Origin: a virus
Lineage: Duplodnaviria; Heunggongvirae; Uroviricota; Caudoviricetes
Length of the DNA stretch: 64,000 nucleotides
Direction: 5' to 3' (one strand)
Virus record (IMG/VR): IMGVR_UViG_3300018475_000004
Positions 48,419 through 64,000 of this stretch are shown here, one piece after another. Position 1 is the stretch's first letter. Every line of letters starts with the position of its first letter. The position numbers and the translations under genes were made by a program. The notes under the pieces are model-generated. The model ran no database searches. It was not told the DNA's origin and saw nothing but the letters and a program-made list of their open reading frames with translations.

Positions 48419-48494
48419 GGACGGTTAGCTCAGTCGGTAGAGCAGTAGGCTGTTAACCTACCTGTCGGGGGTTCAAGTCCCTCACCGTTCGCCA
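48419..48494 (+). tRNA. tRNA-Asn(GTT)
   Basis: Cloverleaf with CCA. Confidence 0.92.
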
Positions 48495-48664
48495 AGAGGT
48501 CAAGTATTAAGACCTTTTCAAAAAATAATACTCGGGCCTGTGGTACTCCCTAAATATGGACCACCGAGGTTTCAGCCATGTAGTTTCTCGTAAATATAAG
48601 CCATGGCACTCTCAATTACGGCCCCAGAGTCGAGAGTATAATAAAACTCGTGGGGCACTCATTT

Positions 48665-48750
48665 GGGGATATGGCGGAATTGGTAGACGCGCCGGATTTA
48701 GGCTCCGGTCCCGCAAGGGGTGACGGGTTCGAGTCCCTCTATCCTCACCA
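48665..48750 (+). tRNA. tRNA-Leu(TAG)
   Basis: Type II cloverleaf, CCA. Confidence 0.92.
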
Positions 48751-48850
48751 CACGCTCGTGGAACCGAGCAGTTCTTTTAGATTATCGGCTACTAATTGAA
48801 AGTCTGGGTGGTTGGCAACTCCATCAGAACATAAATAAGTTGCGATATTT

Positions 48851-48927
48851 GGGCTCATAGCTCCAACTGGGAGAGCGCCTGCCTTGCAAGCAGGGGGTTA
48901 CCGGTTCGAATCCGGTTGGGTCCACCA
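48851..48927 (+). tRNA. tRNA-Ala(TGC)
   Basis: Cloverleaf, G3:U70, CCA. Confidence 0.92.
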
Positions 48928-48929
48928 TA

Positions 48930-48999
48930 GTTCCTTTAGTTTAAGTAGGGAGAATGGCTTGAGGGCAAGAGATGTGGGTTCGAGTCCCATAAGGAACAC
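48930..48999 (+). pseudogene. tRNA-like element with degenerate anticodon arm
   Basis: GTTCCTT/AAGGAAC acceptor, D and T arms present; anticodon stem collapsed; no CCA. Confidence 0.65.
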
Positions 49000-49013
49000 A
49001 TATGTAGATGAAA

Positions 49014-49084
49014 GTCCCATTAGTTTAATGGCAGAACGCACGAAGTAATAGGTGTGATACTGGTTCGAATCCAGTATGGGAAAT
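49014..49084 (+). pseudogene. tRNA-like element with 10-nt anticodon loop
   Basis: TCCCAT/ATGGGA acceptor, ACTGG-TTCGAAT-CCAGT T arm, CGCAC-GAAGTAATAG-GTGTG; no CCA. Confidence 0.6.
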
Positions 49085-49473
49085 CTCCGGTTTTTTTATA
49101 ACCAGTTATCCGGTGAGGGGTTATTATTATGATTATGGATAACGACAATAACTCTGTTATAAACTGGGCTTAAAGTTGTTTGGTCATTTACAAGTATTTT
49201 TCGCAGGGGTGTTGGCTTAGAAGTTTGGACTAAAACTAAAACTTCTGAACGAAACTGGGAGGTTATGTGTCAACCAGAAACACTTTCGCAGGTTGCCCGC
49301 CGAGAGAGGCAAACGGCCCACATCGGGTGCTAAGAATAGAGGGTAATTTATTTGTTATCGGCTTCAGCCAGAAATGGAAACCGGACCCGTGATGCTGCGG
49401 ATGGGGGTGCACACCCTGAAATGCGTTTTTCTTGAATGAGAGTTCGCGGAATTCGGATCAAAATCCGCCACAT

Positions 49474-49560
49474 GGGGATATGATGGAATCGGTAGACGTG
49501 TCAGACTCAAAATCTGATGGCCGAGAGGTCGTGTGGGTTCGAGTCCCACTATCCCCACCA
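49474..49560 (+). tRNA. tRNA-Leu(CAA)
   Basis: Type II cloverleaf, CCA. Confidence 0.92.
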
Positions 49561-49713
49561 GCACCGCAGATGTTTGAGTAGGTACCGTCACTGCGGGTAT
49601 AAGTTAAAGACCTAGTACTTACGGGGAAGCGCCATGGGCAGAGTACCGCTGACAACTCTACTGGCCGCAACGGGGTTGTGATTTTACTCGTTGCTTGAAA
49701 ATCACTTTTATAT

Positions 49714-49792
49714 GGGTTATGGGGCTGCTTGGGGTGGCCACCTGTCTGGCAGACAGGATATCAGATCGGTTCGAATCCGATATGATCCACCA
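49714..49792 (+). tRNA. tRNA-Ala(GGC)
   Basis: Cloverleaf, CCTGT-CTGGCAG-ACAGG, CCA. Confidence 0.85.
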
Positions 49793-50028
49793 TTGGCTCA
49801 CGGTGAGCCTGGTTCCTAGGTGGGATCGACAAGAATACACCAGGCGCGACAACGGTGCGAGTACAACAGTTGTAGGCTTCAATGCATGGTCTTCATTATG
49901 CGTCGGTACCTAAGATGCCGTCAATATTGGTTGCTAGCGCCAATTCTAACTAAAAAATCTTTCTTGATTTTTATAAAAAAATATGTTATAATATTTATGT
50001 AAGATAAAGAAAGAGAGGTAAATGAAAT

Positions 50029-50130
50029 ATGTTTGATGATTTCACTACTCAGATTCAATCTGATGAACTGGCAGAAATCCAGGGATGGAATGATGCTATG
50101 GAAGACCCTCGTTATCTTTATGAAGAATAA
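50029..50130 (+). CDS. 33-aa acidic peptide (MFDDFTTQIQSDE...)
   Basis: Own class II promoter, GAGGT RBS, TAA directly before tRNA-Glu. Confidence 0.55.
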   Translation: MFDDFTTQIQSDELAEIQGWNDAMEDPRYLYEE

Positions 50131-50131
50131 T

Positions 50132-50208
50132 GGTCCCATCGTCTAACCGGCATAGGACACCACCCTTTCAAGGTGGAAATCGGAGTTCGAGCCTCCGTGG
50201 GATCACCA
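50132..50208 (+). tRNA. tRNA-Glu(TTC)
   Basis: Cloverleaf with CCA. Confidence 0.9.
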
Positions 50209-50483
50209 GATGGTAAGCCACCAGGAGAAGGAAAACCAGAAAAAACTGGAAATACCGGGGCGAAACCTTTGCCTAAACTGGGCTAAGAAATACAGGTTGC
50301 GTGCGGCCGCAGCACGAGTAAGGGACGTAAAGCGGTGGTTTAAGAGTGTTACCTATAACCAACCGGGCGAGAAAAACAAATGAGCAGGCCCGTTAAAATG
50401 ATAGTCGCGAATATCATCTGCAATCCTGGGCTGGTCGAAAGACCCTGGTCCACCCAAAGGCGCTGGCAACCGGCGCCACATAT

Positions 50484-50559
50484 GGCCCCGTCCTCTAACG
50501 GTTTAGGAGGTCGGCCTCTCACGCCGATAATCCGGGTTCGAATCCCGGCGGGGTCACCA
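50484..50559 (+). tRNA. tRNA-Glu(CTC)
   Basis: Cloverleaf with CCA. Confidence 0.9.
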
Positions 50560-50708
50560 TGCGGCTTGGCCGCTTTATGTAAAAGCGTTAACATGGATTT
50601 GTAAGTTAAACTACCACCGGCTAGGGATACGCAGAGCAATACTGATGCCTTAGATATGTGGCTTAGTGGAAAACGCTATATAAGGAAGCAAAGTAAACTT
50701 ACTAATAT

Positions 50709-50784
50709 AGCTTCGTGGAGCAGTGGAGTGCTCGTCAGTCTGTCACACTGAAGATCGCGGGTTCGATCCCCGTCGAAGCTGCCA
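50709..50784 (+). tRNA. tRNA-Asp(GTC)
   Basis: Cloverleaf, G73, CCA. Confidence 0.9.
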
Positions 50785-50951
50785 TAAGGTATGTTCCCAG
50801 TACCTCGTAGCGGAAAACCTGGGCGTGGAAGAGGAGACGAAAGAATCGCTTTTTTAAGTAGCAAGTTTTGGTGGTGAAACTGCTTTGGGTGTTGATATGA
50901 CCCTAGGGCTTAAGAGCATATTAAAGGATAGCTGTCCAACATCATTTATTT

Positions 50952-51028
<77 letters not shown>

Positions 51029-51224
51029 TTGTAGAGGGATTGAGCTAACCCAGTCCGGACTATAAAAAACTGAAAGCCTTGTAAAAAATGCATGAGGTTT
51101 CAAGAACAGTTTCTCTACTTACCAGATGACTAGGCTCCTGGATTTTTGGAATTCAAGGGACTGCCCCCTTAGAATAGTTAGTCAGGCTTAAAACAGGAAA
51201 CGCAGGACTGTACCTAGTCAATAT

Positions 51225-51300
51225 CCCTCGATAGCTCAGCTGGTAGAGCACTCGGTTCATACCCGGGATGTCGCTGGTTCGAGTCCAGCTCGAGGGACCA
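51225..51300 (+). tRNA. tRNA(CAT), Met or Ile2
   Basis: Cloverleaf with CCA. Confidence 0.85.
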
Positions 51301-51471
51301 GAAGCGCCAGTCATACGCGTTGGTACTGGATAGCCAAAGAGAAGTTCTCAAAATGGGTTGCAAACTGTTGCGATAAAATATTCTCCGCTTTGCCACCCGC
51401 TACTTTGCGGTTCATTTCCTTTCATGTGCGGTCGTGGGGGCTCCGACCGGAAAAAACTCCCCCTTAGATAT

Positions 51472-51545
51472 TGCAGTGGTCGTCTAATGGTAGGACACTA
51501 GGCTCATAACCTGGATACGAGGTTCGAATCCTCCGGCTGCACCCA
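51472..51545 (+). tRNA. tRNA(CAT), Met-like, imperfect acceptor/T junction
   Basis: CTAGG-CTCATAA-CCTGG arm, TTCGAAT loop, ends CCA. Confidence 0.7.
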
Positions 51546-51546
51546 T

Positions 51547-51622
51547 TGCGGGGTAGAGAAATGGTAACTCACTAGCCTCATAAGCTAGAGATTGTCGGTT
51601 CGAGTCCGACCCCACGCAACCA
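51547..51622 (+). tRNA. tRNA(CAT), initiator-like acceptor with bulge
   Basis: TGCGGGG-TA-GAG start, CTAGC-CTCATAA-GCTAG, CCA. Confidence 0.75.
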
Positions 51623-51657
51623 GAATCATAATGATTCTCCTTTCGTTTGTGTTCATA

Positions 51658-51776
51658 AAGACACTCACAGCAAATAGCTTTGTAGCGAGATTAGCTCAGA
51701 TGGGTGAGCAATTGTCTGATAAACAATAGGTCGTTGGTTCGAGTCCAACATTTTGCAAAACAAACAATGTGTCTTG
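51658..51776 (+). ncRNA. ACAGCAA cassette 2 carrying whole tRNA-Ile(GAT) lacking CCA (51685-51757)
   Basis: AAGACAC/GTGTCTT stem encloses unpermuted cloverleaf. Confidence 0.85.
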
Positions 51777-51781
51777 TATAT

Positions 51782-51858
51782 GGGCCGGTAGCTCAGCAGG
51801 TAGTAGCAGTGGACTGAAAATCCACGTGTCGGCGGTTCAATCCCGCCCTGGCCCACCA
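51782..51858 (+). tRNA. tRNA-Phe(GAA)
   Basis: Cloverleaf with CCA. Confidence 0.9.
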
Positions 51859-52147
51859 ATAGTCGGATAGGAGACTATATAATCAAAACCCTATCGTCAA
51901 GACCGGCATCAGGAGATCCACATCATTGGTTTCCTTTCTGTGGTACTTTTGTCATTGTGTTTTTCATTTTATGCCTCCTCATAAAAAATATACAGCGCGA
52001 TGTGGCTGCCGGAAACGTATCCTTTTCTATATATCTCGAAATATATAGAAACAAAAACTACTATATAGCAGAGAGTTTTTACATCTAGGCTCGGGTGAGT
52101 TTGTTTTTTACTCTGCTATTTCTAATGAAAAATTTCGGAGGAATATA

Positions 52148-53170
52148 ATGCAAGATTTATCAATTATTATTCCTGTTTATAATAATCGAGCAGGCTTAAT
52201 TTCGACTCTGTTATCTATTGGTGAAATCGCATAGACTGTCCTTGATTGGGGCATTAAAGTTATCATAGTTGATGATTGTTCTACCGAAGTGAACTATGAT
52301 GACATTCCTCAATTATTTACTTCATTTGTAGATATAACTTTATTTCGATTATCTGAAAATTCAGGACCAGGTCAAGCAAGACAATATGGTTTAGACCATA
52401 GTGATACTGAATATGTTATGTTTTTGGATGCAGGAGATGTATTATCTTTTCCAACTCATTTTATTCAGCTAATGGATTTGGTTTTGCGTCATCCAGATAT
52501 TAAAGTATTTTCATGTGGTCGAGAAGGTATTTCTGATACTCGTCAAATAGGCTATGTTGGTCCAGCGCATAATAAAATTCATGGAAAAATTTATCGATTG
52601 GATTTTCTGAAAAATTATAATATTAGATTCATTTCTGATCATTATTATTCAGAAGATATTGGATTTAATTTAGCTTGTCGATTAGTTTGTGCAGAATTAG
52701 AGCGACGAAAAAATGAGACTCAATTATTTGAATTTCCTAAGCCGATTACAACTGAATTATTCGATGGAAATTCTATTACTCGTAAAAATAATGGTGAGTT
52801 TAAATATACCGAGAATTATGGTCTTGGGTATAATTTAGTTCATGCTCTTGAAATTGCTTTATCGAACGGTGTTCATCCTTCTATTATTGAAGTGTATGGA
52901 TATGAAAATTTAATCTGTCAATATATTTTCTTTTACGAAGCATATACCCATCAAAAAGGTCTTGAAAAAAGTTTAGAGGGATGCCGTTATTGGTATCGAA
53001 ATTTTAAGTATTGTATTCCTAAATTCAATGAGCAATTACTAACTAAAGTATATAATGATATGATGAAAAAATTATATGCAGAAGATGTAGAATATGCTTT
53101 CAATACAACTATTCCTAAATTATCTTTTTGGGATTTTATAAATCTTCTGGAAAAAGAAGATAAAGAGTAA
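52148..53170 (+). CDS. GT2-family glycosyltransferase (code 15, 340 aa)
   Basis: MQDLSIIIPVYNN...GEIA*TVLD...IIVDDCSTE joined through TAG 52232-52234; GPGQARQYG, FLDAGD, SEDIGF motifs. Confidence 0.9.
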
Positions 53171-53188
53171 GAGCAATCTTACTCATAT

Positions 53189-53278
53189 GGACGTGTGGGA
53201 GAGAGGCTTAATCCAGCTCCCTGCTAAGGAGCCGACCTCGTAAGGGGTCCGCTGGTTCGAATCCAGCCACGTCCGCCA
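53189..53278 (+). tRNA. tRNA-Ser(GCT)
   Basis: Type II cloverleaf, G73, CCA. Confidence 0.92.
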
Positions 53279-53452
53279 AGAGCAGAGAAGTACAATTTGC
53301 TTAGTGATGTATAGTGTAGGTAGGAAAGAGCACGCCAAAATGGAGGTCATATGCCAGAGTAGGTAACCCGGACGCCTAAGAAGCTCACCCGGTGCATCAC
53401 GCAGGCATCTAACGCCAAGGGCTTGCGGCCGCCAGTAAGTGTCGCATTATAT

Positions 53453-53540
53453 GGAGGAGTAAGCATAATTGGTACTGCCACGGTCTAGAAAACCGTTCGT
53501 CCGCAAGGGCGTGCAGGTTCGAGTCCTGTCTCCTCCGCCA
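53453..53540 (+). tRNA. tRNA-Ser(AGA)
   Basis: Type II cloverleaf, ACGGT-CTAGAAA-ACCGT, G73, CCA. Confidence 0.88.
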
Positions 53541-53697
53541 GCGTCTTTAGGGGCGGGATAGTGGCGTGAAAGTAAATGTGTCATGCAGGTTGTGCTGTTC
53601 CTCACTACATCTTGAATGTAGGAGTTGCATTGAAATTAAAACCCCTCTGTTATACTCCAGGCAGTTATTACGATTCTAGATTCTCGTAGGAGAATAT

Positions 53698-53774
53698 GCC
53701 CCGATAGCTCAGTTGGCCAGAGCATTTGATTAGTAATCAAAAGGTCGTCGGTTCGAATCCGACTCGGGGCTCCA
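53698..53774 (+). tRNA. tRNA-Thr(AGT)
   Basis: Cloverleaf, TTTGA-TTAGTAA-TCAAA, U73, CCA. Confidence 0.9.
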
Positions 53775-53909
53775 TATAGGTGCCTCGAAGTTTGCCCGAT
53801 AAAGGTTTGAGTCCAAAAGGTTGAGACCTAAAGTGCTCAACATAATAAAGGGGATTACAAGCATACCAGAAGCAGAGGTAAATGGAATTTGATAAACAGC
53901 CTATAATTT

Positions 53910-53986
53910 GCGCGCTTAGCTCAGCTGGTTAGAGCATCTGCCTTACAAGCAGGGGGTCACTGGTTCGAATCCAGTAGTGCGCACCA
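53910..53986 (+). tRNA. tRNA-Val(TAC)
   Basis: Cloverleaf with CCA. Confidence 0.92.
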
Positions 53987-54121
53987 CTCTCCGTAGTTGG
54001 TTCCATTTGCCAATATAGATAGAAAAGTTCTTTCGCCGTTGATACCCGCAAATATTGGGAGTAGGTTAGGAAAGTGAGGCACAAGCGCACTGGACCTGCG
54101 CTGGCTACGGAGATACCATAT

Positions 54122-54197
54122 GTGGGTGTAGCTCAGTTGGTAGAGTATCTGATTGCCATTCAGAAGGTCGCGGGTTCGAATCCCGTTACCCACTCCA
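54122..54197 (+). tRNA. tRNA-Gly(GCC)
   Basis: Cloverleaf, U73, CCA. Confidence 0.9.
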
Positions 54198-54355
54198 AAA
54201 GTCATATCGAGGGGTATGGTTGAAGCGGTGCAAGATGGATAGAGTTGGCCATAAACGCGGATAGTCCATGTAGCAGGGTAGATATGATAAAGAGGTACTC
54301 TCTGATGCGGAGAGCTAAGTAGGGAGAAGACCGCACTCATATGCCTCTTTGATAT

Positions 54356-54433
54356 GGTGGGTGTAGCTTAGTTGGTTAAAGCGCCAGATTGTGGCTCTGG
54401 AGATCGCCAGTTCGAGTCTGGTCACTCACCCCA
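54356..54433 (+). tRNA. tRNA-His(GTG)
   Basis: 8-bp acceptor with G-1:C73, CCA. Confidence 0.92.
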
Positions 54434-54512
54434 TAGACAGACACAGCAAATATATTTTTTACTAAAAACGCTTATTTTGGGTTTAAGAAATGTTAAAGTA
54501 ATTTCTGTCTAG
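54434..54512 (+). ncRNA. ACAGCAA cassette 3, cargo includes Pro(TGG)-like anticodon stem-loop
   Basis: TAGACAG/CTGTCTA stem; CTTAT-TTTGGGT-TTAAG. Confidence 0.75.
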
Positions 54513-54517
54513 TATAT

Positions 54518-54594
54518 GCGCCAGTGGCTCAGTAGGATAGCGCAACTGCCTTCTAAGCAGTAGGTCGGGGGTTCGAATCCCTCCTGGCGTACCA
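54518..54594 (+). tRNA. tRNA-Arg(TCT)
   Basis: Cloverleaf with CCA. Confidence 0.9.
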
Positions 54595-54702
54595 CTTAGG
54601 GAGTAGAGTAACGGTGCCCCTTACGAAGTCGAAGCTTGGCTAAGTTCAAGCGACCATGGCGCACACCGCGAATCCTAAATTGAAGAAAAGGAGAAATTCA
54701 AG

Positions 54703-54933
54703 ATGGTTACACCTGTAAAGTTTGAAACCAAGGAAGATTTATTCCGTTTCAGTGAGTTAGCAAGTAAGCAGGATTTCAATATTTTCATCGGTACTGATTA
54801 TGGTCAGTTAGATGCCAAGAGTCTTCTGGCTCTGTTCACCATTCTCGGCAAGGAAGTAAATGTTGTTGCCCCTGATCACGCAAGTGCTGACAAGTTTATG
54901 AAGTTCCTCGATGAGTATAACCGTGCGGTCTAA
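54703..54933 (+). CDS. HPr-like phosphocarrier-fold protein
   Basis: 76 aa, LDAKSLLALFTI matches HPr Ser46 region; lacks N-terminal active-site His. Confidence 0.55.
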   Translation: MVTPVKFETKEDLFRFSELASKQDFNIFIGTDYGQLDAKSLLALFTILGKEVNVVAPDHASADKFMKFLDEYNRAV

Positions 54934-54946
54934 TCCGCACAAATAT

Positions 54947-55023
54947 GCGGGTTTAGCTCAGTTGGATAGAGTACCTGGCTACGAACCAGTAGGTCGGGGG
55001 TTCGAGTCCCTCAACCCGTACCA
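54947..55023 (+). tRNA. tRNA-Arg(ACG)
   Basis: Cloverleaf with CCA. Confidence 0.92.
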
Positions 55024-55172
55024 ATAGAGTCCTCCAGAACTCTTGCGACAAATCGCTAATCTGGATATGGGGATGGGGCCCAAAAGGATCAGAATTAGGT
55101 GGGCTTTATGTTGCGGTTGAGGCGGCCCGCAACAGTTGATTTTCAAAAAAATTTTTGATATAATATATACAT

Positions 55173-55291
55173 AAGGCAGATACAGCAAATAACTTTTTTC
55201 AAGTTCTATAGTCTATTGGATATGACATTTTCCTTCCACGAAAAAGAGACGGGTTCAATTCCCGTTAGAATCAGAAAAATTACCTGCCTTG
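55173..55291 (+). ncRNA. ACAGCAA cassette 4 carrying degenerate whole tRNA-Gly(TCC)
   Basis: AAGGCAG/CTGCCTT stem; TTTTC-CTTCCAC-GAAAA arm, GGTTCAATTCC T loop, no CCA. Confidence 0.8.
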
Positions 55292-55296
55292 AATAT

Positions 55297-55373
55297 GCTC
55301 CAGTAGCTCAGATGGTTAGAGTACACGACTGATAATCGTGAGGTCACTGGTTCGATCCCAGTCTGGAGCACCA
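55297..55373 (+). tRNA. tRNA-Ile(GAT)
   Basis: Cloverleaf with CCA. Confidence 0.92.
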
Positions 55374-55374
55374 A

Positions 55375-55442
55375 GAGGAAGAAACTTCGGTTCAAATCCG
55401 AACATGGGCCCTGTAGTTTAGGTTGGTTTAGAACGCTTCCTC
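55375..55442 (+). ncRNA. Permuted tRNA-like element open at anticodon and closed at acceptor
   Basis: GAGGAAG, T arm TTCGG-TTCAAAT-CCGAA, CATGGG-CCCTG, TA, D arm, CTTCCTC. Confidence 0.7.
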
Positions 55443-55451
55443 CTTTTATAT

Positions 55452-55529
55452 CCGGGTGTAGCTCAGTTTGGCTAGAGCGCGTGATTTGGGATCACGAGGC
55501 CGAGAGTTCGAGTCTCTCCACTCGGACCA
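55452..55529 (+). tRNA. tRNA-Pro(TGG)
   Basis: Cloverleaf with CCA. Confidence 0.92.
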
Positions 55530-55618
55530 GCATAACGCAAACTATCTCATAACTGCACATACTAAAACTTCGGAGTTGTGCCCGACTGGCAGGGAGTAGT
55601 TTTCAGCCTGCCTTATTT

Positions 55619-55694
55619 CGAGATATGGCGCAGATGGTAGCGCGCTTCCTTGGGGTGGAAGAGGCCACAGGTTCGAGTCCTGTTATTTCGACCA
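55619..55694 (+). tRNA. tRNA-Pro(GGG)
   Basis: Cloverleaf with CCA. Confidence 0.9.
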
Positions 55695-55810
55695 GCCTTC
55701 TTTGGCAGTCAAATAAACTTAGTGAGCCGTCTGGTGCGAACAGACAAATTGGTCCAGGCGATAAAGTGGAGAGATAGGCCAATTCAAATAAACGCACTCT
55801 CAAATATTTA

Positions 55811-55947
55811 TAGACACACACAGCAAATTTATTCTATTAAGAATAATATCGGTTCGAGTCCGATACCAACCGCCCTTAGGTTAGTTTGAGAAATTGGTAA
55901 ACTCACTTGTCTGTAAAACAAGCAAATGTCTTAATTAATGTGTCTAG
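55811..55947 (+). ncRNA. ACAGCAA cassette 5 carrying circularly permuted tRNA-Tyr(GTA)
   Basis: TAGACAC/GTGTCTA stem; variable/T arm and ACCAACC precede GGTTAGT, D arm and CTTGT-CTGTAAA-ACAAG. Confidence 0.8.
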
Positions 55948-56015
55948 CATAAAAAATCTTCTTTGATTTTTTCAAAAAAATATGTTATAATATATACATA
56001 AGATAAAGAAAGGAA

Positions 56016-56330
56016 TTGAAGAAGATGCCAAGAATTATTTCAGCCGCAATCAAATTCAAGCCAAAAGGTCATGAATATTTTCAAATCATGTGCGGTCGCC
56101 AGCATTGTGACGTGCTGGAAATGATGTATCAGCTTCGCATTGATTATGAGCGATCCTCAATGGTTCAAGGCTTCTTGACTGATGAAGATCAATTCCTTGA
56201 TCGATATGACGCGGCTCGCGCAGCTTATTTCTCTGGCCAGCTTTCTCCTAACACGGAGCTTTGGCAGAAAATGGCTTCTGATGACCGTTTCCAGAACGCA
56301 CACGCTCTCTATTCGGAGGATTTATGGTAA
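56016..56330 (+). CDS. Conserved hypothetical phage protein
   Basis: IISAAIK...GRQH.D...QGFLTDEDQFLDRYDA...A...GQL...LYSEDLW; probable start ATG 56025. Confidence 0.7.
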   Translation: MKKMPRIISAAIKFKPKGHEYFQIMCGRQHCDVLEMMYQLRIDYERSSMVQGFLTDEDQFLDRYDAARAAYFSGQLSPNTELWQKMASDDRFQNAHALYSEDLW

Positions 56331-56482
56331 GTTGGATACGGTCTTTATTTTGTAAGCATGAATGGCAGTTTCATAAGACTGTCCGAATATGGTGGGACCC
56401 AGAAGCAAATGTCATTGATCAGCAATATGATGTTTATGTCTGTCCCAAGTGTTTGAAAGTAAAAAAAGTAAAGTTCATATAA
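56324..56482 (+). CDS. Small Cys/His protein (LFCKHEW...CPKC)
   Basis: 52 aa overlapping upstream stop, GGAGG RBS. Confidence 0.6.
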   Translation: MVSWIRSLFCKHEWQFHKTVRIWWDPEANVIDQQYDVYVCPKCLKVKKVKFI

Positions 56483-56487
56483 AATAA

Positions 56488-56597
56488 AAGGCACATACAG
56501 CAATTACACATTCTATGTGTTGTGGGTTCAAGTCCCATTTTTCTAGCCATTTTAGAAAATAGTACAATCGGTAGTACAATAGACTTCAAGTGCCTTG
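56488..56597 (+). ncRNA. ACAGCAA cassette 6 carrying circularly permuted tRNA with probable TCA anticodon
   Basis: AAGGCAC/GTGCCTT stem; TCTAT..T arm..TTTTCTA-G-CCA then TAGAAAA, D arm, ATAGA-CTTCAA. Confidence 0.8.
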
Positions 56598-56604
56598 TTT
56601 ATAT

Positions 56605-56680
56605 TGGGGATTGGCGTAATGGTAGCGCGCAGGACTTTGACTCCTGGTCTGTAGGGGTTCGACTCCCTTATCCCCAGCCA
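56605..56680 (+). tRNA. tRNA-Gln(TTG)
   Basis: U1-A72, G73, CCA. Confidence 0.9.
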
Positions 56681-56708
56681 TAAGCCTTTTTATATTCATT
56701 CAACATCT

Positions 56709-56772
56709 AAGACTCTAACAGCAATTTATTTTGGAACAACCTTTTAACTTGTCTACCAGAAACTGAGTCTTG
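56709..56772 (+). ncRNA. ACAGCAA cassette 7, cargo Lys(TTT)-like anticodon stem-loop
   Basis: AAGACTC/GAGTCTT stem; ACAAC-CTTTTAA-CTTGT. Confidence 0.8.
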
Positions 56773-56783
56773 AACATTTATAT

Positions 56784-56857
56784 TCCCGCTTAGTCTAATG
56801 GCAAAACGGCAGACTCTGACTCTGCATTTGGTGGTTCGAGTCCATCAGCGGGAGCCA
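56784..56857 (+). tRNA. tRNA-Gln(CTG)
   Basis: U1-A72, G73, CCA. Confidence 0.9.
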
Positions 56858-57198
56858 AACTCATAGTGGATAATGGCGTTACGTTCCTAATCGGCCGCTG
56901 CCCCAGAAATGCGAAAATGTGTCGAACCTATGAGTTGCCAAAAGTAGGAGTTCTTGGATGGGAACCAAGTATAAATCTCTGAAAAACCTCAAAGGTGGGC
57001 TTTGAAAGTAGCCATCCTATAATGAGTGGTGCGATGCGTACGGCGGACCTTTGGTGTAATAACACATGAGGCAGGTTTGCGGTCAACCTGGCCAAAAACC
57101 GAAATGTGTTCTGCGCGACCGGCCGAAGGGGCAACGGGAATAATGACCCTTCACCAAAAATTTGACTTTTCAAAAAAAATTTGTTATAATATAAATAT

Positions 57199-57277
57199 AA
57201 GGCTCAAACAGCAATTCTTATTCATAAAATTTGCGACTGCAACTCGCTCCAACTGTATGAGAAAAAAGTGAGCCTTG
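57199..57277 (+). ncRNA. ACAGCAA cassette 8, cargo Cys(GCA) anticodon stem-loop
   Basis: AAGGCTC/GAGCCTT stem; GCGA-CTGCAAC-TCGC on TCATA/TATGA stem. Confidence 0.82.
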
Positions 57278-57279
57278 AA

Positions 57280-57965
57280 GCACTCCTGACAGAAACCCTC
57301 CGGTGAATAACCCTGGTGAGTGCGATTTCGACTAATGACTGTCATGAACCTTGATAAGTTTGCAACTCGGTGAAGAACGAATACCATCGTGCCGAGATCC
57401 TCATCCTGCCTGTGGGTACCAGGAGTCCGAAAAGCAATCTTACCGACGATAGCCGGTAATAGGTAGATTCTCTTGTGGTGACATAAGAGAGCCGCCTCCA
57501 AAGGGAGGGCCTGGATGGAGAGGAGTGCAAAGATAACCGCAATCAAAAATACCGTCTTATCGCTTCCGCAATAGACGCCCCCGTGGGGAATAAGCCTTGT
57601 TAGGGATTAGCTGGTGACTGTTCCAGACCAAGGTACACCAATAAGGAAGTCTGCGTTGATGTCGGAGTAATCCGGCTATAAGGTAAGGTCAGGGTACGAG
57701 TAGCTCTATCGCAACGACGAGAAGAAAGATTGGGCTGTTTAGATAGTATGGTTTAATAGACTTAAACAATTCTGAATGGCGAGTGAAAGTTAGAGGCAAT
57801 CAGTCCTCTGCGGGATAGGGTAGGAAAGGCCGCCTCTGGTGTGTCAGAACTACTGGGGCAAGAAGCTTAGGGTCGCTCCCGAAGGCTCAGACTTGTCTCC
57901 CCGGTGATTGAATATGGTTGAAGGTTATAGGGAGTATGACGAAGGTCAGCAAACTTATCAGGTTT
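57280..57965 (+). ncRNA. Probable GOLLD RNA (boundaries approximate)
   Basis: About 690 nt ORF-free structured region between tRNAs; 3' blocks GTAGCTCTATCGCAA, GAATGGCGAGTGAAAGTT..AATCAGTC, GGGTCGCTCCC..GGCTCAGAC, GAATA..GAAGGT..AGTATG..AAGGTC resemble the GOLLD 3' core as I recall it. Confidence 0.68.
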
Positions 57966-57973
57966 ATAAATTT

Positions 57974-58127
57974 GGGAAACTGGCGGAATTGATAAACGCA
58001 CCGGAGCCGAAAGGCTTTTCATTTGAAAAAGGTGTTGGCAAAGACCTTATCCGCAATATGTTTCTATGATTACTGTAAATCCGGCGTCTGAAAAGACTTC
58101 TTGGTTTGAGTCCAAGGTTTCCCACCA
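57974..58127 (+). tRNA. tRNA-Tyr(GTA) interrupted by 67-nt insertion (58006-58072)
   Basis: GGGAAAC/GTTTCCC, A73, CCA, long variable arm; removal gives CCGGA-CTGTAAA-TCCGG. Confidence 0.8.
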
Positions 58128-58493
58128 GGGGCGAAAGAAATGTCGCCTAGCCCCCGTAAAGGCGACAATCAGCGAGTTCATTATTTTTCTCGCTCCACCA
58201 CCCTCCATGCCCAAGGAGATTGAACAAGGCTAAAGCGAAAGTCCTCGCGTGACGTGTTGAGCCTCCAGGTTGCTCGTGCCTGCACAGCGACTGTTTTCAC
58301 AATGCGTCGGGAAGTGTCTGAGCGATGTAGATTTTACCCGGGACAAGTCTACACCGGTAGGTCGTTCAAGTTGAGGTCAGACATATACTGAACAAGGCAT
58401 TTATATTTCGGCAGACACCGTGGCCGGCGTTAGATAATTTATATGATTTAGTTTTGAAATATAGTAGAAGCTAAAAGAAAAGGAGATTTTACT

Positions 58494-58901
58494 ATGTTAT
58501 TTGAAACAAATCGTGACAAAGGTCGCGCAGGTATGGCAATGGCAATTGCCTATTTTGGAGCCAATGGATACACTGTGAATGTTCCTCTAAATGATACTCA
58601 ATGGTATGATTTAGTCATTGAAAAAGATGGTGAATTTAAGACAGTCCAATGTAAAGCAACTGGAAGTTCTGATAATACTATTTCTTTGAGAAGTACTGGC
58701 GGAACCAAGGGCGGTACGTATGATAATGTTCTTAATCATCCAGTTGATTATTTATTCTGTTTAGATGGAAATATGAATATGTATGTCATTCCAGTAGCAG
58801 ATATGAAAGAATATGGCTGTAATAAACAAATTACTCTCCGCACTCAAAAATCTGCAAATGGATAGGGTTTTCAAACTTATCAATATCAGGTGTCTTTATA
58901 A
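58494..58901 (+). CDS. Small PD-(D/E)XK endonuclease (group-I-intron-associated / I-Ssp6803I-like; code 15)
   Basis: KGRAG..A.AYF...GY.V..PL.D...YDLVIE......VQCK; TAG 58863-58865 read through to TAA 58899-58901. Confidence 0.75.
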
Positions 58902-58911
58902 TTAAAGATAT

Positions 58912-59001
58912 GGGTCAGTAAAGCGTTAAGGCAGGCGCCCCGGTCTGTAAAACCGGTCCGTTAACACGGTCGAGTGAGTTCAATTCTCTCCTGGCCCACC
59001 A
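58912..59001 (+). tRNA. tRNA-Tyr(GTA)
   Basis: Type II cloverleaf, A73, CCA. Confidence 0.88.
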
Positions 59002-59771
59002 AGAGGTTCAAACCTCTAAAAAATGAATACCATTCGCTGCGAATATAGGCGGGGCATCCTTTCATTCCCAAAGTCCTCGTAGGGTAAAACGTGAGAACTG
59101 CTCCTATGGCTGAAGGTTCTCGGTGGTATTTGAACTAAATAAGGTTTCACTCCGCCTGGTGACTGTGGTGAAACGATATATCCCGACCCGTGCTGATACG
59201 TATCAGATATTTAGTTCGACGCCCCATATGCGTTAATATGGTAGGTTTTCTTTTGACTTTTACCTCAAGCACATAGTTTGATTTTTTCGCTAAAAAGTCA
59301 AAGAGCAGTTTAGTGTTAAAAAGAAAGTGAGACCTTTACTTATAGTCTACGGTCTGTAAGATAAAGTAATCTCCGCTAAGTTGCGCTTCCCCAGACGAAT
59401 AAATAAATCTGAGCGCCTCTATCGCGAAATGGATAGATGATATTGGGTAGCGATAATTGATTGCAGATTTGCCAACTGCCTTAATGTATAATGATATTAG
59501 AAATCTTGTAGGAACTGACATAGCACATGGACCCCAATTCCATGGTCAGGCAACGAAAAGCAAAAGGTGAATACAAGTGGAAAATCCATATTGAATGATG
59601 ATAAGAGCCGATGGTAAATTAGAAGCAGGTCGGTAGTATATGGCGACTCGTTGTAGTCAGCGCATATAAAGTAGGCTCAAGTTAGATTTCAATGTGGATT
59701 TTTTCTATCCTTTTTACTTTGAAAAGTTGATTTTCTAAAAAATTTTTTGTATAATATATACATAAGAAATA

Positions 59772-59838
59772 AAGGCTCACACAGCAACTAATTTTATGAT
59801 GCAGACTTAAAATCCGTTTATCAGAAAAGCGAGCCTTG
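59772..59838 (+). ncRNA. ACAGCAA cassette 9, cargo Leu(TAA)-like anticodon stem-loop
   Basis: AAGGCTC/GAGCCTT stem; GCAGA-CTTAAAA-TCCGT on TGAT/ATCA stem. Confidence 0.8.
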
Positions 59839-59842
59839 ATAT

Positions 59843-59918
59843 GCCAGTATAGCGTAATTGGCAGCGCAACTGACTTGTAATCAGTAGGTTGTCGGTTCGA
59901 GTCCGACTACTGGCTCCA
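59843..59918 (+). tRNA. tRNA-Thr(TGT)
   Basis: Cloverleaf, U73, CCA. Confidence 0.92.
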
Positions 59919-59946
59919 TAAGTTTTATATAGAAAGGATGATTCCA

Positions 59947-60726
59947 ATGCAGGGTGCTATATTTTCAGGTTATGATGCCCGAGATTACAAATTGGTTTAC
60001 ACCGCTTCTGGCGTAGAATTCCCCGCTGAATTTGAGCTGAAGATGCGTGGTATTAAGAATTAGGGTGCGGTCGGCAGCTGTGTCGCTCACTCTTTAGCTA
60101 GTATTATCGAATACTACAACTATACTCAAACTGGTGATCCCAGTGAAATGAGTGTAGGCTATATTTACGGAAACCGTAATACTTCTGACTATAAAGAGTC
60201 AGGTATGATTATGCGTGATGCTCTTGAAGTTGTTCGTAAATATGGCGACGTCAAATATGATTTATTCCCTTACAATCGTGAAGTCCCCGAAATGATTGAT
60301 CTTTATGAGCGTCAGGGTAAGAAATTATTCAAGCAAGGTTATCCCAACCGCATTAGTCAGTATGCTCGTGTTACCAGTTTCAATGCAGTAAAGGCTGCTT
60401 TGATGGCTGGCAATCCTGTTCTAATGGCTATGTGCTGGTTCGCTGATATGGAAGTTGATGATGAAGGTGTTCTACGCACTGAATTTAAAGGCTACGATGG
60501 CGGACATTGTATGTTCATCTATGGCTGGGATGAGCGTGGCTGGAAGGTCCAGAACTCTTGGGGTGAAGATTGGGGAAATCATGGATGTATGATTATTCCT
60601 TACGATATGCCCATCGAAGAAGTTTGGACTTTGACCGATAATGTAATTGAGAATACTAAGACTAAGAAACCCCATAAGTGTATCGCAAAAGTATGTAATG
60701 CTATTTCTAAAATTTTCAAAAAGTAA
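59947..60726 (+). CDS. C1 (papain-family) cysteine peptidase (code 15, 259 aa)
   Basis: IKN*GAVGSCVAHS (TAG 60061-60063 at oxyanion Gln), GGHCM, VQNSWG motifs. Confidence 0.92.
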
Positions 60727-60739
60727 TAAGAGGTAAATT

Positions 60740-61105
60740 ATGATTTTCGATGAGAACAAGTACAAGTGTTATGGTTATGACGAGAAGAATGAGGACGGTT
60801 CCATCCGTTGTCATTGTGTCGTCGCAATTTCTTCCTATGCTGGCAAGCCTGTAAAGGGTTACGCTAAGTGCCATCCTAATGACCAGTGGGACTGGGAAAA
60901 GGGTAAGGCTCTGGCTATCGCTCGCTGCGCCGAGAAGATCGCTGTGAAGCGCGCCAATCGTGCAAACGCAAAGCTGGCTGAGGCTCAGGATATTCTGGCA
61001 GACGCTATCGCTCATATGAACGATATGCTGAACTACTACATGGATTCCGGCGACGAAGTTATGCTAACCAACACCATGAAGAACGAGATTTTGGCTCATA
61101 TGTAA
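60740..61105 (+). CDS. Conserved hypothetical phage protein
   Basis: YAGKPVKGYAKCHPND.WD.EKGK.LA.ARC motif. Confidence 0.7.
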   Translation: MIFDENKYKCYGYDEKNEDGSIRCHCVVAISSYAGKPVKGYAKCHPNDQWDWEKGKALAIARCAEKIAVKRANRANAKLAEAQDILADAIAHMNDMLNYYMDSGDEVMLTNTMKNEILAHM

Positions 61106-61144
61106 TTATATAGAAGGGGCATTATGCCCCTTCAATAGAGTTAT

Positions 61145-61233
61145 GGACAGGTGGTAGAGTCTGGCTTATTACACCGGTCTTGAAAACCGGCGGGCGTAAT
61201 GCTCCGGGGGTTCGAATCCCTCCCTGTCCGCCA
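61145..61233 (+). tRNA. tRNA-Ser(TGA)
   Basis: Type II cloverleaf, G73, CCA. Confidence 0.9.
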
Positions 61234-61343
61234 TCATTTGTAGTTCAAGAAGAAGAATACCCCGTTCCGGAACTTTTTGGGGAGATCTCTTGCGCTACCC
61301 GCCAAGAGCAAATGAGCCTATAAAATTTAGAGAGGATGATTTT

Positions 61344-61667
61344 ATGATTGGTGTTTACAATCGTGATGTATCAATTCGTAAGGCTTTAAGAAAGCGTAGA
61401 ATCGATCAGCAACACAAGACAAGTTGGAATAATGGAGAACCTGTTACCTGGTATGACAACCTTCACCAGTATTCTAAAAATAAAATCCATTCATCTCATT
61501 ATACCTCCCGCACCCGCAACAAGGGTTCCAGGAGAATAAAGTATGGAAATTATGACCGCGCTATCCATTACAGTGCGGCCGATATGCGGAAGGTCCTTGC
61601 GATGGACGAAGATATGCGGGAGGCTGGCTATCACGCGCCTCGACACAAGCGTTGTCGTTTCGCATAA
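61344..61667 (+). CDS. Basic hypothetical protein
   Basis: 107 aa, R/K-rich, RBS GAGGA. Confidence 0.6.
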   Translation: MIGVYNRDVSIRKALRKRRIDQQHKTSWNNGEPVTWYDNLHQYSKNKIHSSHYTSRTRNKGSRRIKYGNYDRAIHYSAADMRKVLAMDEDMREAGYHAPRHKRCRFA

Positions 61668-61849
61668 TGGGACGCCGCAAGAAAAGACCTGAACTATCTT
61701 ATCACTTCTGGCTTGATACAGATGGATGCTGGTTCTGCAAGAAGAAAAATGCCTGCGGTGGATGTAAAGTATTGAAGCGCTACATCCATGAAAAAGAGAG
61801 AAGTCAGAGAAAAATTTCTCGTGACGAGAAGCGTTGGCTTGACTTTTGA
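61667..61849 (+). CDS. Small basic Cys-cluster protein
   Basis: 60 aa, CWFC..CGGC, TAATG coupling. Confidence 0.6.
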   Translation: MGRRKKRPELSYHFWLDTDGCWFCKKKNACGGCKVLKRYIHEKERSQRKISRDEKRWLDF

Positions 61850-61875
61850 AATTTTTTTTAGTATAATAAATACAT

Positions 61876-62012
61876 AAGGCACATACAGCAATACATTTTT
61901 CAAAATTTAAGGCTGTCAACCCGTAGGCTGCAGGTTCGAGTCCTGTCCCCGTCTCCACGGCGGGGTAGCTCAAGTGGTAGAGCAACGTAAAACGATTTTG
62001 TGATGTGTCTTG
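61876..62012 (+). ncRNA. ACAGCAA cassette 10 carrying circularly permuted tRNA-Asp(GTC)
   Basis: AAGGCAC/GTGTCTT stem; 3' part 61911-61957 ending CCA precedes 5' part 61959-61987. Confidence 0.88.
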
Positions 62013-62023
62013 ATTTATTATAC

Positions 62024-62098
62024 TGCGGTGTCGTTCAAAGGTCAGGACAGGGGTCTCTAAAACCTCGGATGTGAGTTCGATTCTCACCGCCGCTGCCA
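62024..62098 (+). tRNA. Amber suppressor tRNA (anticodon CTA), probably Gln
   Basis: GGGGT-CTCTAAA-ACCTC arm, U1:U72 mismatch, G2-C71, G73, CCA. Confidence 0.9.
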
Positions 62099-62166
62099 AA
62101 GAGATCGTAATTGATTTTTATAAAAAAAAATGATATAATATATACATAAGAGATAAGGAAATAAAA

Positions 62167-62261
62167 AAGGCTCTTACAGCAAGTCTTAAACTTGGATAAT
62201 AAAATTTTTTCTGTACAAAATTTTTAGTAGGTTCGAGTCCTACAAACTATCAAGAGCCTTG
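62167..62261 (+). ncRNA. ACAGCAA cassette 11, cargo D-armless tRNA-like element (GTA loop plus T arm)
   Basis: AAGGCTC/GAGCCTT stem; CTGTACA loop; GTAGG-TTCGAGT-CCTAC. Confidence 0.75.
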
Positions 62262-62268
62262 TCTAAAT

Positions 62269-62355
62269 CCCGGCGTGGTGGAATTGGTAGACACAAGGGA
62301 CTTAAAATCCCTCGGTGGCGACACCGTACCGGTTCGAGTCCGGTCGCCGGGACCA
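62269..62355 (+). tRNA. tRNA-Leu(TAA)
   Basis: Type II cloverleaf, CCA. Confidence 0.92.
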
Positions 62356-62434
62356 CGAATCTTAAATAGAAAGGACTGAGTCCAATGTGGAGGTTTACTG
62401 TCTTCTAACTTCAACAAAAGGAGGTTAGAAGTAA

Positions 62435-62734
62435 ATGAGTAGGTCCTACAAGCACACTCCCCGATCCGGGGATAAGAAGGACAAGTATTTCAAAAGATAT
62501 TCCAACCATAAAATCCGCCGTCTTCCCATCGACGAGCATTCCGCAAAGGGTAAGGCTTATAAAAAAGTTTTACACGATTATTTGATTTGCGACTATGAGA
62601 CAGTCGGCACTTCTTTTGAGCAATATTGGAAGCGTCTCGTCAAAAGATGGCATGAATGGGAATGGCGTTATGCGCCATATCCTGATCGCAATGAGGCATA
62701 TCAAGAATATTGTCGTTGGTACATTCGCAAATGA
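62435..62734 (+). CDS. Basic hypothetical phage protein (MSRSYKHTP)
   Basis: 99 aa, AAGGAGG RBS. Confidence 0.7.
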   Translation: MSRSYKHTPRSGDKKDKYFKRYSNHKIRRLPIDEHSAKGKAYKKVLHDYLICDYETVGTSFEQYWKRLVKRWHEWEWRYAPYPDRNEAYQEYCRWYIRK

Positions 62735-62854
62735 GTTGATTTTTCAAAAAAATTTTTGTATAATATAAATACAAGGAAAAAAGAAAATCTTCTCCCCTTT
62801 CTTTAAGTTCCTATCTTCTCGGGGGCATTCCTCGGAGTGCCCCACCTTTTCGAT

Positions 62855-62929
62855 GCGGGATTAGTACATCGGCTAGTGCGCCTGCCTTCCAAGCAGGATA
62901 GGAGGGTTCGATTCCCTTATCCCGCTCCA
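62855..62929 (+). tRNA. tRNA-Gly(TCC)
   Basis: Cloverleaf, U73, CCA. Confidence 0.9.
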
Positions 62930-63048
62930 TTCTTAACTATCCCAGATTGTTGAACTGGGCCGGCAGGATAAAAACTTACCACTCGATGCATCACTAAAGT
63001 CGAAATTGAGCGTAGTGGTTTCGACAAATAAGGTTAAGAAATTTCAAT

Positions 63049-63218
63049 GAGAGCCATACAGCAAACAACTTTGCATAATGCAAAATCGCTACATCTGGTA
63101 GCTCTATCGTATTTTATCAAATACAATTTTAATGATCAAGAAAGAAGAATGGTTTTTTACTAAAACTCTTTCGGTTCTCTCAAAGTAATTTTATTAAGTC
63201 TTGGTGGTGAGGCTCTCG
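63049..63218 (+). ncRNA. ACAGCAA cassette 12, about 150-nt multi-hairpin cargo
   Basis: GAGAGCC-AT-ACAGCAA ... GGCTCTC-G. Confidence 0.72.
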
Positions 63219-63279
63219 ACACTCATCATCGCCCAGAAACTGATATAAACGAACGAGAGAATCATATATTTATTTGTGT

Positions 63280-63374
63280 AGGCACATCCAGCAAATAATA
63301 ACAAGAAAAAGACATTTTACATTTTAGACGATCAAAATATAAAAAACCTTTTACATAGTTATTTTTAGTGCCTC
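63280..63374 (+). ncRNA. ACAGCAA cassette 13 (CCAGCAA variant), AU-rich cargo
   Basis: AGGCAC-AT-CCAGCAA ... GTGCCT; inner AATAAC/GTTATT stem. Confidence 0.65.
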
Positions 63375-63415
63375 GTGGGCGGAGGGCATCTACTCCGCCC
63401 AATTTTTCTTTATAT

Positions 63416-63492
63416 GCGCCGGTAGCTCAGTCGGTAGCAGCACCTGCCTTTTAAGCAGGGGGTCGTGGGTTCGAGCCCCGCCCGGCGCACCA
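63416..63492 (+). tRNA. tRNA-Lys(TTT)
   Basis: Cloverleaf with CCA. Confidence 0.9.
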
Positions 63493-64000
63493 ACCGGTTC
63501 TGCTTTTGCGCACGGGAGAAATTCCTCAGAACCGCCTTTTGGGACGAGTAAGGTTTTACAGTAGGGACTAAGTGGCAATCGGGTGTCTAGAAATTAGACC
63601 CGACCTAAGCCCTAAGATTAGCCTTTCTCGTTGTTTTTATCATATTTGATTTTTATAAAAAAATATGATATAATATTTATGTAAGATAAAGGAAGAAACA
63701 AATTACTGATTTCTTTACTGCTTACCGGCACTTAGCCATCCGACTGCCGTAAAATAGAGATGACCAAGCAATAAGTATTGCCGTTGTGAGTGAGGACGAC
63801 CGAGAAACTCACCAAGAGTAAACTTGACAATAAGAAAGCAAAGGGTAGCGCGATATTGTGCTAGAGTGCAGAAGGACAGTCCCGGCATAAAGCTAATGTT
63901 GGGTGACAGGCCGCTTGAGGTTGCACTGGAGAGGCGTCCGATTATGTGCTTATTGTAAAAATCCAAGAGGTTCAGCTGGCTTCTTGATTTATCCTTTTGG

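Follow-up and report, generated by a model that had tools for sequence, protein, structure and literature searches.

Here, we describe an element at positions 61876-62012 of a 64,000-nucleotide stretch of viral DNA (hereafter, the window), which is part of a 138.8-kb, 67% complete phage record (IMG/VR record IMGVR_UViG_3300018475_000004; Caudoviricetes). A preliminary description had read this element as a circularly permuted tRNA-Asp(GUC) gene. Our analysis suggests, with a probability that we put at roughly 0.7, that it encodes a small non-coding RNA of the Y-RNA type, in which the ends form a handle that would dock on a Ro60-like ring and a body with the shape of a tRNA would work as an effector or decoy.

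The gene is arranged back to front. The 3' part of the tRNA (positions 30-76, CCA included) occupies 61911-61957 and stands ahead of the 5' part (positions 1-29) at 61959-61987, and the two are separated by a single C at 61958. On the plus strand, which carries all the parts listed here, the 3' part opens with the anticodon hairpin (61911-61924), made of G30 and G31, the loop CTGTCAA with GTC at 61915-61917, C39 and C40, plus C41-T43 (together CCCGT), and this is followed by the variable loop AGGCT and the T arm GCAGG-TTCGAGT-CCTGT (61925-61946). The closed acceptor hairpin (61947-61965) comes next, with CCCCGTC, U73, CCA and the linker C running directly into GGCGGGG. The rest of the 5' part (61966-61987) contains U8 and A9 (TA), the D arm GCTC-AAGTGGTA-GAGC, A26, and A27, C28 and G29, the last three of which pair with 61922-61924. 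When the 5' and 3' parts were rejoined, a perfect cloverleaf of 76 nucleotides (nt) was obtained, and ARAGORN identified it as tRNA-Asp(gtc); with the element in its native order, no tRNA was called by the program. The body is framed by two helices. The inner one, P2, has 7 base pairs (bp) between CAAAATT (C61901-T61907) and GATTTTG (G61994-G62000), and the outer stem has 9 bp between 61876-61884 (AAGGCACAT) and 62003-62011, and coincides with the limits of the element. The 3' strand of this stem (ATGTGTCTT) and a conserved G fill 62003-62012, and the 5' strand is followed by the unpaired word ACAGCAA (61885-61891). Single-sequence folding of 61877-62013 recovered the handle, the T arm, the acceptor and the D arm, with a z-score of -1.39 that alone is not significant.

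Thus far, the preliminary description had read the sequence well: the permuted layout, the split between positions 29 and 30 and the pairing of leader with trailer, which extends to the 7 bp of P2, were all found as it had proposed. It had also singled out U73 as atypical for Asp, and in agreement, the two ordinary tRNA-Asp genes of this phage have G73 and C38, in place of the U73 and A38 of the element. Its placement of the element just ahead of an amber-suppressor tRNA was likewise correct, as a tRNA with a CUA anticodon lies on the same strand at 62024-62098, 11 nt behind the handle. Upstream of the element, a sigma-70-type promoter with 11 of 12 consensus matches (TTGACT, 17 nt, TATAAT; 61839-61867, plus strand) was found, and the units that follow, at 62111 and 62736, have similar promoters in front of them. 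No terminator-like site was predicted on the plus strand between the element and the suppressor tRNA, and the arrangement suggests that the promoter at 61839-61867 drives the element and probably the tRNA behind it in one transcript.

Orthologs of the element were taken from the regions upstream of relatives of a DUF2828 gene, dealt with below, on fetched contigs. Five related gut phages have a framed element in the same slot, directly upstream of tRNA-CUA (L022:2271-2406, L024:2992-3179, L033:5018-5208, L030:7445-7586 and L023:4588-4718), and the order of handle RNA, 10-12 nt and tRNA(CUA) is kept in these loci and in the window. All five have the 3' part first and the break after position 29, and all rejoin into tRNAs called by ARAGORN, three with the identity Asp(GUC), one with Gly(GCC) and one with Gly(UCC). 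The structure was then evaluated on a six-sequence alignment (the window and the five orthologs) with 35 pairs and 500 shuffles. The proposed structure was paired in 97.1% of the cells, versus 41-49% when the 3' partners were slid by 1-3 columns; 12 of the 35 pairs change on both sides, and the observed covariation score was reached by none of the shuffles. The complementarity of the two halves, whose loss in homologs had been named beforehand as an observation that would speak against the preliminary description, holds across the alignment. Compensatory pairs flank the split itself, with 31:39 being G-C in three sequences and C-G in the other three, and 27:43 either U-A or G-C. In the acceptor stem, compensatory changes were found in five of seven pairs, and G2.U71 is kept in the four Asp copies; in the T stem, two pairs covary. 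The outer stem of the handle is paired in 95.8% of the cells in the six sequences, and P2 is maintained in the orthologs through changes of U.G to C-G and of U-A to A-U. At the tertiary pair 15:48, the window has A:U and four orthologs have G:C, so that it is paired in five of the six sequences. Moreover, unguided prediction with RNAalifold gave the same helices, except for the AU-rich P2. The best identity of the rejoined cargos to any tRNA in their own locus was 0.61-0.75, which rules out a recent copy of an ordinary phage tRNA gene, and the covariation likewise rules out a chance arrangement. Because of this pairing, the compensatory changes and the low identity to tRNAs of the same locus, the alignment indicates that the fold is under selection, and that neither chance nor the decay of tandem tRNA genes accounts for it.

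Encoded NCCA is present in five of the six sequences, window included, and in about 9 of the 15 closed-acceptor cargos seen in these loci. The cargo of L033 has the full Asp identity set (G73, GUC and C38), and that of L030 the full Gly set (G1-C72, C2-G71, G3-C70, U73 and GCC). A contig of a further relative, from run X17 (window 61834-62086), has the change C61917T, which turns the anticodon from GUC into GUU, together with substitutions in the acceptor stem that compensate each other; its closing loop is short and lacks CCA. Other searches for relatives were less productive. Exact and near-exact pattern scans of viral contigs with the acceptor junction and with an anticodon-to-trailer pattern found nothing, and a metagenome scan with the 17-mer GGCTGTCAACCCGTAGG returned 31 loci, all of them chance matches in unrelated sequence. 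In addition, BLAST of 61800-62400 against GenBank phages gave tRNA-Leu as the sole match, and a related-locus search started from the 125-amino-acid (aa) open reading frame upstream found no relative.

The architecture of this fold is that of a YrlA RNA. In an Rfam run with permissive thresholds (the gathering score of RF02553, the YrlA family, is 69 bits), a full-length match to RF02553 was obtained at 61903-62010, with 40.8 bits and an expect value (E) of 4e-6. Full-length matches were also observed at two paralogs in the window, 48020-48188 (43.7 bits) and 56488-56599 (31.7 bits), and the L022 and L030 orthologs gave matches of 35.0 and 31.2 bits. The alignment spans the T arm, the loop-closed acceptor stem, UA and the D arm, where the consensus UAGCUCA..GGUAGAGC was matched; the outer helix of the model aligns with non-standard pairs on the element. 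The element has, accordingly, the YrlA-type tRNA-like domain, consisting of T arm, loop-closed acceptor, D arm and the tRNA tertiary pair 15:48. YrlA RNAs are tRNA-mimicking partners of the bacterial and phage Ro60 (Rsr), and their ends form the stem bound by the protein (PMC4201824). That of Mycobacterium smegmatis has an acceptor of 7 bp, is cleaved by RNase P and receives CCA in vivo, and YrlA genes lie within 4 kb of the Ro60 ortholog, on the same strand (PMC4201824). These RNAs have been said to resemble a circularly permuted tRNA with a closed acceptor, and the tRNA-like domain of bacterial Y RNAs is described as having an unknown function and binding partner (10.1101/312249). Since the architecture is of the YrlA type, the arrangement noticed in the preliminary description was already a known one. 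One of its suggestions, a deliberately nicked mimic, came close to the mark: what looked like a nick is the point where the handle exits between positions 29 and 30. It is because the handle leaves the body there that the gene reads as a permuted tRNA.

The handle is shared by a whole set of RNAs. Its consensus is a stem AAGRC.., about 2 nt, ACAGCAA, the cargo, the complementary strand and U(U/A)G, and the element follows this pattern. With a strict signature (G-R-S-N-N, 1-4 nt, ACAGCRA, 15-234 nt, the complementary five bases, and then TTG or TAG), 11 copies were detected on the plus strand of the window between 48.0 and 62.3 kb, a span of 14 kb; the opposite strand and the remainder of the 138.8-kb record yielded none. 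A scan of 19 related phage loci gave 54 copies, all on one strand. The stem differs among copies, with matching changes in the distal strand, as in GGCAC/GTGCC, GACTC/GAGTC, GGCTC/GAGCC and GACGG/CCGTC. Within the window, the cargo is a short hairpin in the copies at 54436, 56711, 57201 and 59774, and a back-to-front tRNA body, with differing break points, in those at 48004, 55813 and 56490 and in the 61876-62012 element. Two copies contain whole tRNAs of normal topology without CCA, at 51660-51776 (Ile GAU) and 55175-55291 (a degenerate Gly UCC), and in these the acceptor end is closed by the handle; free tRNAs and most of the back-to-front cargos encode CCA. The copy at 62169-62261 has a perfect T arm (GTAGG-TTCGAGT-CCTAC) and an AU-rich, anticodon-like hairpin with the loop CTGTACA, and lacks a D arm; it is conserved in L022 and in L024, with tRNA-Leu(UAA) directly behind it. 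Because the cargo varies among copies, from hairpins of the anticodon type up to whole tRNAs, we regard the handle frame as the constant part and the tRNA pieces as interchangeable cargo. At 55813-55947, the cargo is a tRNA in back-to-front order that retains the whole GUA (Tyr) anticodon arm, and its acceptor is paired at 6 of 7 positions. Here the break lies at the variable arm, not in the anticodon stem; the handle tolerates different exit points from the tRNA body.

The loop that closes the acceptor is also variable. It has 5 nt in the window element and 6 nt, without CCA, in L022, and in L024, L033 and the window paralog at 48004, it consists of CCA and a conserved 55-nt run. This insert, 55-59 nt long and located between (C)CA and position 1 (window 48004-48184, L024:3070-3125 and L033:5100-5155), forms three consecutive hairpins with the tetraloops GGCA, GUGA and UUCG, the third stem of which covaries (A-U versus G-C). 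Its carriers are a His-like paralog in the window and the Asp orthologs of two relatives. An Rfam search of the insert gave no match, and a hammerhead reading of its CUGAUAU word was rejected, as three consecutive tetraloop hairpins are not a three-helix core.

A candidate partner for the handle is encoded on the same strand as the window. The protein P0001, of 503 aa, contains the domains DUF2828 and DUF7788 (G000:C1:4858-6369, minus strand in these coordinates), and its gene, which has thousands of relatives, lies 6.5 kb downstream of the element, 4.6 kb beyond the end of the window. In the AlphaFold model, a helical repeat region is followed by an alpha/beta domain. When this model was searched with Foldseek, the 13 best PDB matches were all Ro60/TROVE structures, and vWA domains came next; the top match was the Ro60 of Thermus phage phiLo (E 2e-6, template modelling score about 0.5), followed by those of Xenopus, human and Deinococcus. 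Ro60 was found by the fold search only, since comparing the sequence of P0001 with PDB chains yielded no useful match. The DUF2828/DUF7788 product thus has a predicted fold like that of Ro60, and standard domain models miss it. Next, linkage was analyzed in 15 related IMG/VR records that were reached via an unrelated 99-aa gene. DUF2828 was present in all 10 records with handle RNAs at the locus, usually within the same 10 kb, and in none of the 5 records without them (Fisher p 3e-4, uncorrected for relatedness). The handle-less records are the more distant relatives, and therefore this linkage is not independent evidence of co-evolution.

The surroundings of the Ro60-like gene contain further genes that we record here. 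Just upstream of it, on the minus strand, a 369-aa protein with GmrSD_N and an HNH nuclease domain is encoded (G000:C1:6492-7601), and this pair of genes is adjacent in L022, L024, L025 and L026 as well. Homologs of the major vault protein (MVP_shoulder) are located 1.5-9 kb downstream of DUF2828 in three relatives (L024:16060-18534, L030:13009-15537 and L033:20758-21548); MVP_shoulder had no match in the window's own 138.8-kb record. L022 has a diversity-generating retroelement next to the Ro60-like gene, composed of a reverse transcriptase (RVT_1), an RT-18 RNA motif and a target protein of the Mtd_N type (12102-13151 and 15625-15999).

Taking these data together, we infer the following course of events. 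Transcription from the promoter at 61839-61867 would produce the RNA as a leader ahead of the suppressor tRNA, and cleavage by RNase P at the 5' end of the suppressor tRNA would set the 3' end of this leader and release it. The paired ends, with the 9-bp stem and the unpaired ACAGCAA, form the handle that would dock on the ring of the DUF2828/DUF7788 protein, and P2 connects this handle to a complete tRNA-Asp body, whose acceptor strands are joined by the loop U73-CCA-C. Tethered in this way, the body would probably present a look-alike of tRNA-Asp to a tRNA-binding factor. Since the acceptor has 7 bp and NCCA is retained, a cut by RNase P before G1 (G61959) is likely, and by analogy with the YrlA of M. 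smegmatis, the acceptor is probably opened at this site, which would leave two pieces of RNA that stay joined through the handle, P2 and the tRNA stems. A further step is rather doubtful, namely, that this opened, CCA-ended tRNA-Asp clamped on the ring could be aminoacylated, or act as bait for host enzymes that read tRNA identity. It was considered because orthologs keep complete Asp and Gly identity sets. Candidates for such enzymes are anticodon nucleases and the enzyme that inserts queuosine at GUN anticodons. The tRNAs with GUN anticodons are targets of both queuosine insertion and nucleases of the colicin-E5 type, and the other back-to-front cargos of the window carry GUG and GUA anticodon loops, with GUC in the element. 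If this were true, the different cargo identities found at one slot among relatives would be the trace of an arms race over particular tRNAs.

Several observations weigh against the reading as a Y-type RNA. The model of P0001 is of moderate confidence, with a predicted local distance difference test score (pLDDT) of 67.5, and Pfam TROVE had no match in P0001, in the 138.8-kb record or in the five relatives. That the handle docks on this protein is probable, and it is their genomic linkage, and only this, that points to it. On the RNA side, all the RF02553 scores (31-44 bits) are under the gathering score, and the handle differs from the published Ro-binding motif (GNCGAAN0-1G; CGAA in phage phiLo): near the 5' end, where this motif was looked for, the element reads AAGGCACAT ACAGCAA. 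Finally, the short closing loops without CCA in L022 and in the X17 contig indicate that opening by RNase P would not be universal, and a closing loop of 5 nt, as in the window, may be a poor substrate for this enzyme.

Among other explanations, the one that fares best, although unlikely, is that the element is a cis-acting leader, which would control maturation or timing of the suppressor tRNA by means of a tRNA-like fold that competes for RNase P or other processing factors, with no Ro60-like partner involved. The conserved order of handle RNA, short spacer and tRNA(CUA) in all six phages is in line with it, as are the single promoter for both and the lack of a predicted terminator between them; if this phage switches its genetic code, regulation of its suppressor would also be plausible. 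Nevertheless, other handle RNAs precede ordinary tRNAs (Phe, Arg, Ile, Gln, Thr and Leu) and a ROOL RNA, and the arrangement is therefore generic; in addition, such a leader leaves both the ACAGCAA handle and the linkage to the DUF2828 gene unexplained.

A true permuted tRNA gene, as held in the preliminary description, is very improbable. It would require that the handle and P2 be excised at G29/G30 and the ends ligated into a circle, from which RNase P and a 3' nuclease would produce a tRNA-Asp for translation. In its favor, rejoining gives a flawless tRNA whose CCA is encoded, covariation accompanies the conservation of the split site and of the anticodon stem in both its halves, full identity sets are present in the cargos of L033 and L030, and the same possibility was raised for YrlA by the authors of 10.1101/312249. 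Despite this, the junction is a three-way one, where the leader UAA and the trailer UAAAAC meet beside P2, and it contains no bulge-helix-bulge, since a pair of 3-nt bulges with a 4-bp helix between them is absent. Searches for a splicing endonuclease or an RNA ligase were negative as well: tRNA_int_endo, RtcB, RNA_ligase and RNA_lig_T4_1 had no match in the 67% complete record, where the T4 Rnl1 control gave no signal; in the whole set of domain searches, TROVE and MVP_shoulder included, two controls matched nowhere. The leader and trailer are not dispensable flanks: they belong to the conserved handle, which is common to RNAs without tRNA cargo. Furthermore, the phage already has two ordinary tRNA-Asp genes, the window copy carries U73 and A38, one ortholog is devoid of CCA, and the cargo at the same slot is Asp in some phages and Gly in others. 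The phage route to permuted-tRNA maturation that had been suggested is thus not supported by the junction geometry, the enzyme searches in the incomplete record or the shared flanks. In four RNA-labelled runs, available as assembled contigs only, contigs of two relatives cover the element in native order, and neither an ACG|GG joint nor a G1 end was present in them; such contigs cannot show RNA ends, strand or rare forms, and therefore this result decides nothing on expression or processing. Last, a decayed, functionless remnant of two tandem tRNA-Asp genes (the 3' end of one and the 5' end of the next) could be dismissed, for even though spacer-less tandem tRNAs exist in the array (tRNA-Met at 51472-51545 and 51546-51618), the parts complement each other exactly, one covering 30-76 and the other 1-29, both lie inside the conserved handle, and it is refuted by the compensatory pairs that six phages show in their acceptor, T and anticodon stems.

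The element belongs to a phage tRNA array that takes up the last 17 kb of the window and comprises 36 tRNAs, as called by ARAGORN, and one ROOL RNA. The latter is full length (323 bits; 57342-57967) and located directly behind a handle RNA, and ROOL was found in L030 and L033 too. The 3' part of the OLE RNA model (positions 436-595) matched 63543-63632 with 53 bits, against a threshold of 50, and this match recurs in a relative (L022:4607-4694); it may reflect a sub-motif in common with OLE, and not an OLE RNA as such. A DUF3800-XI RNA motif, with 47.6 bits and above threshold, was detected at 50427-50462, just upstream of tRNA-Glu(CUC).

When compared with known systems, the gene shares with the permuted tRNA genes of Cyanidioschyzon merolae, other algae and Thermofilum pendens the 3' half placed first, the short acceptor linker, the paired leader and trailer and the perfect cloverleaf. 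These genes, reported by Soma 2007, Maruyama 2010 and Chan 2011 as cited in 10.1101/312249, differ in that they have a bulge-helix-bulge, at which the splicing endonuclease cuts before ligation closes a circle, and in that they give working tRNAs. For annotators, the element is a caution: "permuted tRNA genes" in phage tRNA arrays are likely to be Y-like RNAs, and not a sign of archaeal-type splicing in bacteria. Its relevance is to research on Ro60 and Y RNAs and to phage-host conflicts over tRNA, not to a bacterial pathway of tRNA splicing.

The dictyostelid Class I RNAs (RF01414; PMC7919456) have a short stem that joins the ends, a conserved 11-nt word by its 5' strand and an otherwise variable sequence, and the invariant T3, C6, C9, A10 and A11 of that word would fit one ending in ACAGCAA (PMC7919456). 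However, these RNAs come from eukaryotes, measure 42-65 nt and carry no tRNA cargo, and no RF01414 match was listed by Rfam for window 47000-64000 at E up to 5. A related phage system is found in Thermus phage phiLo (PMC12135203; PDB 9KOP and 9L5Y), where a ring protein of the Ro60 fold is encoded by the phage with partner RNAs upstream, an arrangement like that predicted here. The phiLo RNAs, Yrl1 and Yrl2, are in contrast simple stem-bulge-stem structures with CGAA, and they are not described as tRNA mimics (PMC12135203).

The likeness is greatest with the YrlA RNAs of Salmonella, M. smegmatis and mycobacteriophages, with which the element shares the paired ends, the T arm, D arm and loop-closed acceptor, the covariation at 15:48, and a gene on the same strand as one of the Ro60 type, which in the phage is the gene of predicted Ro60-like fold 6.5 kb away. 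A class of Y RNA with a tRNA-like domain of permuted appearance has been known since 2014, and it is the details that set the phage RNA apart; neither Rfam nor the literature searched contained this ACAGCAA handle, a DUF2828 protein as a Ro60-like candidate partner or so nearly complete a tRNA cargo. The handle word replaces GNCGAAN0-1G, and the candidate partner, a DUF2828/DUF7788 protein, is unrecognised by Pfam TROVE. The element also has many paralogs with other cargo. Published YrlA RNAs are without an anticodon loop, whereas here a complete anticodon hairpin with a real anticodon is retained, and for this reason the handle exits from the anticodon stem between positions 29 and 30 and completes a three-way junction there as its third arm. 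To this are added, relative to published YrlA as a class, an acceptor of tRNA length, 7 bp, and the encoded NCCA of five of the six orthologs. The phage loci would thus hold a large family of RNAs with interchangeable, tRNA-derived cargo, encoded near a protein of predicted Ro60 fold. One protein and a dozen RNAs make a testable system for what tRNA mimicry by Ro/Y particles serves, which is probably part of the conflict between phages and bacteria over tRNAs. Collectively, these features make the phage RNA a much more complete tRNA than any published YrlA.

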